Notes: generated by a model from the letters alone, not told the origin. A stretch of DNA of 64,000 bases from Pusillimonas sp. (GCA_044464765.1 JBIQKZ010000019.1:4759-68758); one strand, 5' to 3'. Counted from the first letter of the stretch, positions 27,810 to 37,994 are shown. Translations and numbers: made by a program.

Positions 27810-27826
27810 ATTAAGCCAGCGTTAAG
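27810..27826 (-). promoter_or_regulatory. Direct repeat CTTAAC-N5-CTTAAT (minus-strand reading) 135 nt upstream of ccmA
   Basis: The plus strand reads attaag ccagc gttaag. It lies in the 238-nt trxB-ccmA gap and has the same architecture as the boxes at 35816 and 37978. Confidence 0.55.
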
Positions 27827-27913
27827 GGCGCAGTGGCCGTATCTAATTCGGGTTTTAGCTTTTGGGCCGCTTCGAATTGACAGAGGCTGTCTGGCGGGCT
27901 TTTATTCGCGGAG

Positions 27914-28867
27914 TCACGCGAAAGGTGGCTGATCCAGAAACCGTTCAGCGTCTAGCGCCGCCATGCAGCCGAATCCGGCGGACGTGATGGCTTGACGGTA
28001 ATGTTGATCGGTCACATCTCCAGCGGCGAACACCCCTTCCACCGACGTCTGTGTCACATTTCCGCCGAGTCCAGAATTGATTTCCAGGTAGCCGTTGTTC
28101 ATGGCTAACTGGCCCTCGAATAGCGCGGTATTAGGATGATGGCCGATAGCCACGAAGAAACCCTGTGCATCGATGTCGCGAGTGCCGCCATCGAATACCG
28201 ACTTGATTCGCACGCCGGTAACGCCCGTATCGTTGCCCAGCACTTTATCAATGGTGTGATGCCAGACGGTCTCAATCTTTCCCATGTCAGCTTTCTCGAA
28301 CAGCTTATTCTGAATGATCTTCTCGGCGCGTAAGGTATCGCGACGATGGATTAGATAGACCTTGCGGGCAATATTGGACAGATATAGTGCTTCCTCGACT
28401 GCCGTGTTGCCGCCGCCGACCACTACCACGTCCTGCTCCCTGTAGAAGAAGCCGTCGCAGGTGGCACAGGCTGACACGCCGCGTCCCATAAATTTTTTCT
28501 CTGACTCAAGACCCAGGTACTTAGCTGTTGCGCCCGTCGCGATGATGAGGGCGTCACAAGTGTACTCGCCACTGTCACCGACAAGCTTAAAGGGGCGTCG
28601 CGACAGGTCGCTGGTGTGGATATGATCGAACACCACTTCCGTATCAAAGCGCTCGGCATGCGCCTGCATGCGGCTCATCAACTCCGGCCCCACCAAGCCG
28701 TCTGCATCGCCAGGCCAATTATCGACCTCTGTAGTAGTCATCAATTGACCACCTTGCTGCAAGCCAGTAATGACCATGGGCCTAAGATTGGCTCGTGCAG
28801 CATAGACGGCGGCGGTCCATCCCGCTGGACCTGAACCAAGGATAATGAGTGAACGGTGCGTGCTCAT
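27914..28867 (-). CDS. trxB: Thioredoxin reductase
   Basis: GSGPAG FAD fold, redox-active CATCDG and NADPH fold [10 protein letters not shown]. Confidence 0.93.
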
Positions 28868-28871
28868 TCGA

Positions 28872-29189
28872 TCACTCCAAGTGTTGCTTGACGAAGTTGT
28901 TCAATTGCACCTTTCCAATCGCTCCTACCGTTCTGTCAACGAGCGAACCATTCTTGAATACCAGCACTGCAGGTATGCTCTGAACCTCGAAGCGATGCGC
29001 CAATTCTGGTGCGTGATCAACGTTGATCTCGCCGAATTGGGCGTCTTCAGCCATGTCACTGGCGGATTGCTTGAATGTGGGTGACATAGCCCGACACGGT
29101 CCACACCATTCAGCCCAGAAGCGTACAACGTGTACGCCGGATAGGCCTATGGCAGTGTCAAAATTTTCGGAGGTGAGTTCTTTGATCAT
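28872..29189 (-). CDS. trxA: Thioredoxin
   Basis: [11 protein letters not shown] active site. I placed the start at [11 protein letters not shown] (29189), which gives a canonical 105-aa thioredoxin. Confidence 0.9.
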
Positions 29190-29244
29190 GAATAAGTTTC
29201 CAAGCGAGAGGGATAAAGGTTTGGCGGTGCGGTTCAATGAGCGG

Positions 29245-35815: not shown

Positions 35816-35832
35816 ATTAAGGCAGTATTAAG
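35816..35832 (-). promoter_or_regulatory. Perfect direct repeat CTTAAT-N5-CTTAAT (minus-strand reading) in the divergent ccoN / response-regulator promoter region
   Basis: The plus strand reads attaag gcagt attaag. It lies 124 nt upstream of the ccoN ATG and 99 nt upstream of the regulator ATG. Confidence 0.6.
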
Positions 35833-35930
35833 AGGTGAGGAACGGGTGAGCAAAGCCCGAAAGACTGTTAAGATTTTTGCTTGATAGAGAGTTCAGAGAA
35901 TGTTTAGCGCCGGTACGCAAGGAGAATGAA

Positions 35931-36608
35931 ATGCATATTTTGCTCGTCGAAGACGATCTCCTCGTCGCGAGCGGTATCGTGGCGGGATTGAGATTGCATG
36001 GTCTGACGATCGACCATGTGAGCACGGCTAACTTGGCGGATGCTGCATTGGCGACGTCATACTTTGATGTATGCATCCTTGACCTTGGGTTGCCGGACGA
36101 AGACGGAATGGTGTTACTGCGCCGCTGGCGCGAAGAAGGTCGTGATCTTCCCGTTCTCGTGTTGACGGCACGTGACGCACTCAGTCACCGTGTGGAGGGG
36201 TTACTTGGAGGGGCCGACGATTACCTGGTTAAACCTTTCGACTTGGATGAGTTGCAGGCTCGATTGCACGTACTGACGCGCCGGGTCGCAGGTCGTGTCA
36301 CCGACTGCATGAATCACGGGGAACTGAAGTTCTGTTCGTCAACAGGCCGAGTATGGCTAGCCGATAAGCCGGTTACGCTGGCACGCCGTGAGCTGTCATT
36401 GCTGCGCGCGTTGTTGCAGAATCCTCAGGCCATCCTTAGCACAGAACAGCTTTGTGATAGCGTCTATGGTTACGAGCAGAACGTGGAAAGCAATGCGATC
36501 AACGTCCATATTTATCATTTGCGCCGCAAGCTTGGAAACAATATTGTCGAAACAGTGCGTGGACTCGGTTATAGGCTTGGCTCAACCGAGAAGGTAGCGG
36601 AAACATGA
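35931..36608 (+). CDS. OmpR-family response regulator (PmrA/QseB/BasR-like)
   Basis: Receiver domain (LLVEDD, ILDLGLPDEDG, LVKPF) plus a winged helix (NAINVHIYHLRRKLG...VRGLGYRL). RBS AAGGAGA precedes the start. Confidence 0.92.
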   Translation: MHILLVEDDLLVASGIVAGLRLHGLTIDHVSTANLADAALATSYFDVCILDLGLPDEDGMVLLRRWREEGRDLPVLVLTARDALSHRVEGLLGGADDYLVKPFDLDELQARLHVLTRRVAGRVTDCMNHGELKFCSSTGRVWLADKPVTLARRELSLLRALLQNPQAILSTEQLCDSVYGYEQNVESNAINVHIYHLRRKLGNNIVETVRGLGYRLGSTEKVAET

Positions 36609-37963
36609 GTCTGCGGCTGCGCCTTCTGCTGTATATCGGTATTTCGCTGACTGCGCTTTGGACTTTGGTGGCGACCTGGATGTTCATTGACGCCCGTCAG
36701 TCGTTAGGCCAGGCATTGGACAACCGTCTGGCGGCGTCGGCACGAATGGTTGCCGGGCTGGTTTCTCAATTTCCCGAACCTCAAGATATTGCCGCAATGG
36801 GTGATAAGCCATTGGACGTCGTCGCCCGAGATGGGGTGGCGTGCGAAGTAAGCCTTGTGCGCAGCGAAGTCGTGATTGAAACCGTGGCACGTACGGCAGG
36901 CAGCCCTGAACTGATGCACGCTGATCCAGGCTTCAGCACCTATACATACGGTAATAAGCGATGGCGCACTTATGTACTGCGGCAGGGCGATGTTCAGATC
37001 GCCACCGCCGACAGCATCGAGGTCAGAGAGGCATTGGTCAAAGAGTTGATCCTTTCGGCGGGGGTGCCGTTCGTTGTCGCCTTGTTTGGCACCCTGATCG
37101 TGCTGTGGTTGGGCATCACCCGTGGACTGGCGCCTGTAGAGCGTATCCGCAGCCTTCTGGCACGGCGCCGACCCGGCGACGATAGCCCGTTGCCGGAAGT
37201 GAAGGCCCCGATAGAGTTACAGCCGCTCTTGCATACGATTGAGCAACTTTTGGAAAGGCTGCAGGATGCAATCGTGCGAGAACGCCGATTCACCGATAGC
37301 GCTGCGCACGAATTGCGTACGCCACTTACCGGTGTGAAAACACACATTCAAGTAGCGAAGCTTGCACTGCAACGGCGAGAGGAAAGAGCCACGATGGAAG
37401 CTGCGCTGACCAACGCAGACCAAGGGGTACAGCAGCTGCAAAATATCCTTCAGCGTTTGCTTGATCTGGCGCGGTTAGAAGGCCATTCCATCGCGAAGGA
37501 AGCTAGCGACCCGATTGAGGCGGCATCCATTGCAATTGAGGCATTGAAGCCAATGTACGGTGACTCTGTGGCTAGAATATCGGTACAAGGGGTTGACAGC
37601 TCGCGGTCGGTACGCGCTGCGCGGCCACTTCTAGTTGGGGCCATCCAAAACCTAATTGATAATGCAATACGCTACGCACCCCCCGACACTCCCATTACAA
37701 TTCGCCTGGAGCCGCAAAGCAATGGCACCATGCAAATTAGTGTGCTGGACGAAGGCGCTGGCCTGAATGCGCAAGAGCGGGTTCAAGCAGTTAATCGGTT
37801 TTGGCGTGGAGACCCCAAAATACCCGGCTACGGACTAGGCCTATCTATTGTGAACGCGATTGCATGCCGACATGCGGGTGCATTCGAGCTTCTGGAACGC
37901 GATGGCGGCGGGCTGGAAGCGCGACTTACGCTTCCAATAGCGGACGATACTACGCTTTCTTGA
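36605..37963 (+). CDS. Sensor histidine kinase (PmrB/QseC-like architecture)
   Basis: Two TM segments flank a periplasmic domain of about 130 aa. H-box SAAHELRTPLT, N-box NLIDNAIRYA and G-box GYGLGLSIV are present. It overlaps the regulator by 4 nt. Confidence 0.92.
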   Translation: MSLRLRLLLYIGISLTALWTLVATWMFIDARQSLGQALDNRLAASARMVAGLVSQFPEPQDIAAMGDKPLDVVARDGVACEVSLVRSEVVIETVARTAGSPELMHADPGFSTYTYGNKRWRTYVLRQGDVQIATADSIEVREALVKELILSAGVPFVVALFGTLIVLWLGITRGLAPVERIRSLLARRRPGDDSPLPEVKAPIELQPLLHTIEQLLERLQDAIVRERRFTDSAAHELRTPLTGVKTHIQVAKLALQRREERATMEAALTNADQGVQQLQNILQRLLDLARLEGHSIAKEASDPIEAASIAIEALKPMYGDSVARISVQGVDSSRSVRAARPLLVGAIQNLIDNAIRYAPPDTPITIRLEPQSNGTMQISVLDEGAGLNAQERVQAVNRFWRGDPKIPGYGLGLSIVNAIACRHAGAFELLERDGGGLEARLTLPIADDTTLS

Positions 37964-37977
37964 GTTTCCTGCGAAGC

Positions 37978-37994
37978 CTTAAGCTTCCCTTAAT
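37978..37994 (+). promoter_or_regulatory. Direct repeat CTTAAG-N5-CTTAAT 46 nt upstream of the dsbD start
   Basis: The sequence cttaag cttcc cttaat lies in the 76-nt kinase-dsbD gap. A possible -10 (catgat) sits 11 nt downstream. Confidence 0.6.

Follow-up and report, generated by a model that had tools for sequence, protein, structure and literature searches.

A predicted DsbR-type regulon joining periplasmic disulfide reduction, cytochrome c maturation and a thiosulfate-linked oxidase on a probable conjugative element of Pusillimonas sp.

The copper-sensing two-component system DsbRS of Pseudomonas aeruginosa (PA2479/PA2480) activates the dsbDEG genes. DNase I footprints of its response regulator DsbR read TAA-N7-TTAAT, chromatin immunoprecipitation sequencing yielded the motif TTAA-N7-TTAA, and this motif is kept 5' of dsbD in 14 species. 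Residue D51 of DsbR is essential; the residues described for the kinase DsbS are C82, H235 and S239, the last being less strictly conserved, and its periplasmic part comprises residues ~28–146. DsbS binds copper in vitro, which requires the critical cysteine, and copper is the signal that was tested (for all of these data: Yu et al., bioRxiv 10.1101/2020.08.17.255257). A hexamer direct repeat with the same 11-bp period, overlapping the −35 region, is the target of PmrA/BasR (PDB 4S05, 8JO2; PMC10570014, PMC3973317). Here we describe a stretch of 64,000 nucleotides (nt) from Pusillimonas sp. (GCA_044464765.1, JBIQKZ010000019.1:4759–68758; the window hereafter), in which three such repeats, or boxes, precede a dsbD operon, an operon for a ccoNO-like oxidase with thiosulfate dehydrogenase (tsdBA), and a cytochrome c maturation (ccm) operon, in the neighbourhood of a regulator–kinase gene pair.

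An earlier note on this sequence had picked out the boxes by eye and had assigned the three operons to one regulon of a PmrA/QseB-like system. Our analysis points to a different sensor family: it is likely that the three boxes are binding sites of a phosphorylated DsbRS-family regulator, which would switch on the three operons by class II activation. Binding, activation, transcription starts and signal are all things that we infer from the DNA and protein sequences.

Boxes and promoter geometry

The DsbR-type box 5' of ccmA (CTTAACGCTGGCTTAAT, 27.2 bits) lies at 27810–27826 on the (−) strand, in the gap of 238 nt between trxB and ccmA (27676–27913). The box 5' of ccoN (CTTAATACTGCCTTAAT, 28.0 bits) is at 35816–35832, also on the (−) strand, in the 160 nt between ccoN and the regulator gene (35771–35930), and the one 5' of dsbD (CTTAAGCTTCCCTTAAT, 24.8 bits) is at 37978–37994 on the (+) strand, in the 76 nt between the kinase gene and dsbD (37964–38039). 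Reading the sequence again confirmed what the earlier note had reported of their coordinates and strands, their intergenic position, their orientation, each into its own operon, and their form, an OmpR-family direct repeat with 11-bp periodicity. The narrower form YTTAAK-N5-YTTAAK fits two of the three boxes in the strict sense and not the third.

The pattern CTTAAN-N5-CTTAAT has three matches in the 64 kb, where 0.01 are expected from dinucleotide-preserving shuffles, and the motif is indeed far above chance. Allowing one mismatch returned the same three matches and none extra; the relaxed pattern TTAA-N7-TTAA also gave these three (0.12 expected). The position matrix behind the scores was made from sites of relatives, with three near-identical loci excluded. 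On this matrix the boxes scored 24.8–28.0 bits, the runner-up position in the window 11.6 bits, and the maximum in 20 shuffles was 18.6 bits. Because the mismatch, relaxed and matrix scans add no site, the list made by eye, although offered as non-exhaustive, was complete for the window.

The sites of related loci (see below) define a fixed promoter geometry. In 79 of the 88 unique oriented sites a hexamer NAnnnT begins exactly 12 nt past the proximal TTAA, as compared to 0–14 of the 88 at any other offset, and all three window promoters have a −10-like hexamer at the 12-nt offset. These predicted −10 hexamers are TATCGT for the ccm promoter (27794–27799, −), TATTGT for the ccoN promoter (35800–35805, −; TATCGT, TACTGT or TAGCAT at the same offset in relatives) and CATGAT for the dsbD promoter (38005–38010, +; CATCAT or CATTAT in relatives). 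The fixed offset sets the orientation of the box and places it between about −39 and −23. Aligned in this orientation, the sites agree on sTTAAy-N5-cTTAATC: the proximal TTAA is followed by T in 80 of 84 sites and then by C in 65 of 84. For comparison, the PhoB box occupies −41 to −25 and the pmra-box lies 4 bp further downstream, each occupying the place of the −35 element, as class II activator sites do (PMC10570014). The predicted position of the window boxes falls between the two, and the geometry is of the class II activator type if the predicted transcription starts are correct. A promoter scan of the three gaps found no consensus sigma-70 promoter, as expected for activator-dependent promoters. 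A hairpin at 38000–38016 is not kept in relatives. The three promoters share only the box, the TC/TT that follows it and the position of the −10 hexamer, and are otherwise of unrelated sequence; they are therefore not duplicates of each other.

The ccoN box had also been taken to serve the divergent regulator gene. Outside this box the matrix maximum in 35771–35930 is 5.6 bits, so that no box faces the regulator gene, and the ccoN box read in reverse lacks a −10 hexamer at the fixed offset within the same gap. Sharing of the box, or autoregulation, is thus unproven in the window, since box and −10 hexamer point to ccoN only. A candidate autoregulatory box, GTTAAG-N7-CTTGAT at ~35869–35887, was rejected on account of its 13-bp period. 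Some related loci, among them L019 (9260–9285), L021 (2103–2128), L041 (9185–9210) and L042 (9258–9283), have an array of three TTAA half-sites, TTAA-N7-TTAA-N7-TTAA, in divergent dsbD/regulator gaps, which makes overlapping boxes in both orientations. Such an array, which the window lacks, could plausibly serve to activate in both directions.

Identity of the two-component system and conservation of its sites

The DsbR-like response regulator (35931–36608, +) is composed of Response_reg and Trans_reg_C domains (Pfam) and is a member of the OmpR/PhoB family, PmrA/QseB subfamily, with the phospho-acceptor D51 in the context ILDLGLPDEDG. The DsbS-like sensor histidine kinase (36605–37963, +) has a 2CSK_N periplasmic domain, C80, H235 and T239. 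C80 is its single periplasmic cysteine, and C80 and H235 are invariant in both kinase alignments.

Among solved structures in PDB the one nearest to the regulator is BasR/PmrA (E 2e-48); the matches that follow it are around 1e-34. The nearest NCBIfam models are PmrA (score 219, cut-off 330) and QseB (209, cut-off 345) for the regulator and QseC (184, cut-off 475) for the kinase. The PmrA/QseB-like character that the earlier note had given to the regulator is therefore right at the level of the subfamily, and the pair is no PmrAB or QseBC equivalog, the scores being far below the cut-offs. These scores speak against membership of PmrAB, as does the PmrB model, which matches the kinase with 157 (cut-off 314) and covers residues 143–446, the cytoplasmic part only; the QseB and QseC scores speak against membership of QseBC. 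It is very improbable that the boxes belong to a PmrAB/QseBC-type system that is PmrA-like (responding to Fe3+, Al3+ or acid) or QseB-like and merely adjoins the operons, a reading close to that of the earlier note. The structural and NCBIfam neighbours named above would agree with it, as would the motif, which fits the pmra-box XTTAAY-N5-XTTAAY overlapping −35 in sequence and in predicted position; this fit is non-discriminating, because the feature is common to DsbR and PmrA. Against it, no lipopolysaccharide-modification genes (pmrC/eptA, arn/pbgP, ugd) were found in the cluster gene map or among the larger open reading frames (ORFs) scanned in the window, and, unlike in PmrA/BasR systems, the predicted targets serve redox reactions of the periplasm and respiration. 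The sensor domain of the kinase is unrelated to that of PmrB, and its signature, including the cysteine, is common to Pseudomonas kinases with a dsbDEG-linked layout.

By our comparisons the window system belongs to the DsbRS family and not to PmrAB or QseBC, and this corrects a label, as several database sources list relatives of the kinase as PmrAB or QseBC. The systems share an OmpR-family regulator with D51, a kinase with H235 and one periplasmic cysteine (C82 in P. aeruginosa, C80 here), TTAA cores at the same spacing, and a dsbD-led operon as main target. They differ in several respects. In the window dsbD lies downstream of the kinase gene on the same strand, whereas in P. aeruginosa it is divergent from the regulator; S239 is replaced conservatively by T239; and the one box between the window regulator and its divergent neighbour faces away from the regulator. 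The window system is probably carried by an integrative and conjugative element (ICE), and the oxidase/tsdBA/Cu-ATPase/trx-trxB and full ccm operons are predicted targets unreported for P. aeruginosa. The copper response is known from the P. aeruginosa system. Orthology to PA2479/PA2480 is argued through proxies, P. putida-group loci with the published layout and Cys82 numbering: their regulator is 62% and their kinase 40% identical to that of the window, and the single periplasmic cysteine of these kinases is at position 82 (81 in L074). A solved structure of the DsbS sensor domain was not found.

The residues of PmrA that contact the TAA bases are T187, N188, V192 and H195 (PMC10570014). In the window regulator N188 and V192 are identical, T187 is replaced by Ser and H195 by Tyr, and the recognition helix ESNA(I/V/L)NVH(I/V)(H/Y)HLRRKL is near-invariant across 78 regulators of the family.

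Conservation of the sites was assessed in relatives found by scanning a kinase alignment (n = 12) over one genome per species, using the peptides ASARMVAGL and [IV]ARDG[VL]ACE, the second of which holds the cysteine. The scan gave 541 relatives; the 80 best-matching loci (1.46 Mb; cited by L numbers) were analysed, and P. aeruginosa is not among these 80. The window proteins were mapped onto the loci before the motif was searched. The motif TTAA-N7-TTAA occurred 97 times, where 1.1 are expected from the TTAA density, and other spacings from N3 to N14 gave 0–6 matches. Nearly all sites adjoin the regulator–kinase pair or the linked operons. An oriented box was present 5' of dsbD in 39 of 43 loci and 5' of the orthologous ccoN in 10 of 10; in the Massilia locus L058 the oxidase operon is downstream of the kinase gene in the opposite orientation and has retained its own box. 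In all ten Alcaligenaceae-type loci (L001–L010) the box is 46–47 nt before dsbD. Five loci have a real ccmA neighbour, and in 4 of these a box was found before ccmA. This box keeps its half-sites and position while the spacer differs (TTAATATTGACTTAA in L001–L003, TTAACTTTCAGTTAA in L008), and so do the flanks. In L004, where the ccm genes follow dsbG, no box was found 5' of ccmA.

The arrangement of the genes varies around the boxes. The tandem regulator-kinase-dsbD is seen in the window and in L001–L010, and the divergent layout in 30+ other loci of the kinase family; in the P. putida group it reads dsbG<dsbE<dsbD divergent from regulator>kinase, with the box in the intergenic region. A box stands directly 5' of tsdB-tsdA in seven loci (L040, L051, L053, L061 and L071–73), which are from Pseudomonas sp. 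MYb185, Halopseudomonas, Delftia and four Comamonas. In relatives without ccoN, the box divergent from the regulator drives other sulfur genes: a SorA-like sulfite-oxidase-family Mo-enzyme with a cytochrome c in Advenella (L015, 6474–9209), and a YgaP-like rhodanese in the second copy of the system in Allopusillimonas ginsengisoli (L010, 8381–9169).

Conservation of the boxes across relatives, their orientation and their geometry strongly support the central proposal of the earlier note, that the three operons form one regulon, with binding as a prediction. The specificities of PmrA-subfamily regulators overlap, and the recognition residues are largely common with PmrA, which could mean that the boxes are bound mainly by another PmrA-like regulator of the host; alternatively, they could be chance repeats or leftovers of a duplicated promoter. 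We give these explanations next to no probability. The boxes travel with the regulator–kinase pair in 80 loci of Burkholderiales and Pseudomonas, chance is excluded by the shuffle and matrix statistics, and duplication does not agree with promoters that have so little in common.

Operons and mobile element context

The oxidase operon (27914–35770, −) encodes, in order, a ccoN-like and a ccoO-like subunit, a tsdB-like dihaem cytochrome c, TsdA, a Cu-type P1B ATPase, thioredoxin and thioredoxin reductase. The assignments are based on Pfam and NCBIfam, and TsdBA on a PDB match (5lo9, TsdBA; TsdA part, E 2.9e-90; TsdB part, E 3.9e-36). The P1B ATPase is of the copper type and has an HMA domain. 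The ccoN-like (34097–35770, −) and ccoO-like (33447–34100, −) products are divergent, with CcoN at 255 bits against an NCBIfam equivalog cut-off of 583 and CcoO at 103 against 201, and domain scans recognised no ccoP, ccoQ, ccoG or ccoH in the operon. As in canonical cbb3 clusters (ccoNOQP-ccoGHIS), there are CcoN and CcoO subunits and a Cu-translocating P1B ATPase, the counterpart of CcoI; unlike in these clusters, the position of CcoP is filled by TsdB and TsdA. The presence of tsdB/tsdA behind ccoO suggests an oxidase that is fed by thiosulfate dehydrogenase.

The distance of 46 nt that had been quoted for ccoN runs to an upstream in-frame TTG (35770), the start in the ORF list. Conservation among four genera begins at ATG 35692 (MTPILG...), ~124 nt from the box, and this ATG is most likely the start. 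The conserved N-terminal segment that it opens is extra to CcoN, ~80 aa long, and reads MTPILGxLLATSFVASLVALGILVWAVANKLIF...; it may resemble a CcoS/FixS-type segment.

The ccmABCDEFGHI operon (21214–27675, −) encodes System I cytochrome c maturation (Pfam), with genes that overlap or abut. Here conservation and a GAGG Shine-Dalgarno motif favour TTG 27669, ~140 nt from the box, as the start of ccmA over the position in the ORF list (27675). Of the range of 46–135 nt given previously for the distances to the start codons, the lower value is correct for dsbD, whereas ccoN and ccmA have the values given here. No terminator-like site was found upstream of the ccm operon.

The dsbD operon (38040–47091, +) consists of dsbD, genes for two TlpA/DsbE-like redoxins, a DsbC/G-like isomerase and a TauE-family exporter (Pfam/NCBIfam), and, in its 3' part, genes for a flavoprotein disulfide reductase and a DUF302 protein and an lnt paralogue, which ends at 47091. 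The start of dsbD, TTG 38040, is 46 nt from the box, a distance kept in 10 relatives, and the gene order is kept in L001–L003 and L008. Genes overlap or abut inside each of the three units; terminator-like hairpins that would delimit the operons are no commoner than background. Co-transcription of lnt with the dsbD operon is uncertain, as is its start. The lnt ORF of 637 aa is ~100 aa longer than the LNT_N domain requires, and the region from the DUF302 gene to the Lnt domain (44906–45480) holds only an ORF of 108 aa (45057–45383) without a Pfam match. The first redoxin after dsbD (39887–40720, +) is a fusion of an N-terminal membrane part, weakly Lgt-like over residues 12–123, and a TlpA/ResA-like thioredoxin domain. 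This Lgt-like part and the terminal lnt paralogue tie lipoprotein-maturation-like parts to Dsb genes.

Thioredoxin reductase (TrxB) and thioredoxin (Trx) supply DsbD with electrons, which DsbD passes on to DsbE/G-type proteins and CcmG. This path links the three units in function, as does the maturation of the haem c proteins of the oxidase operon by the Ccm proteins.

The cluster is flanked by genes that resemble the backbone of a Tn4371-like ICE. These encode RadC (1551–2078) and a DUF3363 relaxase-type protein (8791–11256) on one side, and on the other a LysR regulator (47177–48094), the type IV coupling protein (48627–50642) and, in order and up to 60297, homologues of the TrbB-like ATPase, TrbE, TrbL, VirB8-like TrbF, TrbG/CagX and TrbI. 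The backbone order of the Tn4371 family is radC, DUF3363 relaxase, cargo, LysR (traR-like), traG, trbBCDEJLFGI; judged by the gene order, a Tn4371-like ICE probably carries the cluster as cargo between the relaxase and LysR/traG genes. The window does not reach the integrase, the att sites or the ends of the element. The earlier note was right to speak of an island. A PAGI-2-type island was considered and dropped, as the backbone genes point to the Tn4371-like ICE. Other cargo of the element consists of genes for a LysR regulator, a short-chain dehydrogenase/reductase, an amine oxidase, an alcohol dehydrogenase, two MFS pumps and an AraC regulator.

Kinases 96–99% identical to that of the window occur in Pollutimonas sp. 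H1-120, Pusillimonas caeni and Allopusillimonas ginsengisoli, the last with two copies of the system (kinase 96% and 76% identical). This pattern fits recent horizontal transfer. Against this kinase identity across the three genera, ccmA reaches only 90%, and the ccm box has a spacer unlike that of the window, so that a boundary of recombination may lie close to the trxB-ccmA gap; the loci concerned are L001, L002, L003 and L010, the last being the second copy in A. ginsengisoli. A search of plasmids in PLSDB gave only short matches of 73–77% identity and did not find the module.

Proposed mechanism, signal and meaning

In the mechanism that we propose, regulator and kinase (35931–36608 and 36605–37963) would form a DsbRS-family two-component system, in which periplasmic copper, sensed through C80, would block the phosphatase activity of the kinase. 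Each box would stand in for the −35 element of a sigma-70 promoter, and a head-to-tail dimer of the regulator would recruit RNA polymerase in the class II manner known from PmrA and PhoB. Activation of the dsbD operon would bring reducing power into the periplasm and supply DsbE/TlpA-like and DsbG-like clients. The oxidase operon would provide the ccoNO-like oxidase with tsdBA, the Cu-type P1B ATPase and a cytoplasmic Trx/TrxB pair that feeds DsbD. The ccm operon, complete and including the DsbD client CcmG, would mature the c-type cytochromes of the oxidase operon.

Several points weigh against this mechanism. Binding, expression and transcription starts in the host are predictions made from sequence alone. 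Orthology to PA2479/PA2480 passes through the P. putida-group proxies, at 62% identity for the regulator and 40% for the kinase, and the sensor domain of the kinase is only partly conserved between Alcaligenaceae and Pseudomonas, so that the ligand could differ. The ccm box rests on five loci with three distinct sequences, and the ccm genes of L004 have no box of their own; the window operon may be read through from the ccoN promoter, since there is no terminator between trxB and ccmA. The motif hardly differs from the PmrA box, so that a different PmrA-like host regulator could bind it. Finally, several targets in the clade belong to sulfur oxidation, namely tsdBA, the SorA-like enzyme (L015), the YgaP-like rhodanese (L010) and TauE.

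The last point bears on the signal. The earlier note had left the signal of the system unknown. In the DsbRS family, however, copper has been established experimentally, by way of the periplasmic cysteine that is conserved here, and copper is our best-supported guess for the window system as well. It is favoured by the homology to DsbS, the conserved cysteine, the Cu-type ATPase in the regulon and the copper-sensitive cytochrome targets. Cytochrome c assembly and the cbb3 oxidase are targets of copper toxicity in the periplasm (PMC4600104), and for this reason the induction of an extra ccm operon and an oxidase by copper would be sensible.

The same regulator and boxes could instead respond to a thiol-reactive sulfur compound acting at the single periplasmic cysteine, with thiosulfate, tetrathionate, sulfite and polysulfide as candidates; the regulon would then combine a thiosulfate-oxidising respiratory branch with periplasmic reductive systems for tolerating the products. 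In line with this, tsdBA, genuine TsdBA by sequence, is a recurrent direct target, an equivalent box drives the SorA-like enzyme with its cytochrome c and the YgaP-like rhodanese, and a TauE-family exporter is encoded inside the dsbD operon. The tsdBA clusters of Halomonas provide a parallel to the box/tsdBA pairs in relatives, as tsdB-tsdA lies beside a PmrA/QseB-like system (a 'QseB'/kinase pair) and a Dsb gene, dsbG, and thiosulfate induces tsdBA 4- to 21-fold (PMC9237845). This induction was not tied to the two-component system, however, and the pair is likened to ours by gene neighbourhood; that study proposed no binding motif, and its authors suggested quorum sensing (PMC9237845). Moreover, the sole family member with a tested signal answers to copper in a Cys-dependent way, and the regulon includes a Cu-type P1B ATPase with an HMA domain. 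We consider a sulfur signal, in place of copper or beside it, unlikely, but it is the main alternative. A possible, still doubtful, extension would be that DsbS/DsbR is no dedicated copper sensor but a general sensor of periplasmic thiol oxidants (Cu2+, and tetrathionate/sulfite chemistry) acting through its single conserved cysteine, with dsbDEG and tsdBA as the core of a regulon that was expanded on the ICE and made transferable. One switch would then control a thiosulfate-fed, divergent cbb3-like oxidase (ccoNO-tsdBA) together with its own copper pump and cytochrome c maturation, and would also cover the protective electron path from NADPH via TrxB, Trx and DsbD to DsbE/G and CcmG.

Returning to the DsbRS-family reading with copper as the signal, the predicted DsbR-box regulon extends beyond the searched literature in that it takes in tsdBA, ccm and a divergent ccoNO-like oxidase together with its Cu-ATPase and Trx/TrxB. 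The strict rule for the distance between box and −10 hexamer and the probable location of the complete unit on a conjugative element also go beyond this literature, in which a search for copper or two-component control of tsdA, ccm or ICE cargo gave only the gene-neighbourhood remark on Halomonas.

A motif noticed by eye has thereby become a well-supported regulon that is directly testable. The promoter rule, sTTAAy-N5-cTTAATC followed by NAnnnT 11 nt after TTAAT, may be used to annotate the regulon in hundreds of genomes. As probable cargo of the ICE, the whole unit would be transferable, and it is common to three genera at 96–99% kinase identity. Overall, periplasmic disulfide reduction, cytochrome c maturation and respiration would be linked under one envelope-stress switch, which fits the sensitivity of cytochrome c assembly to copper.

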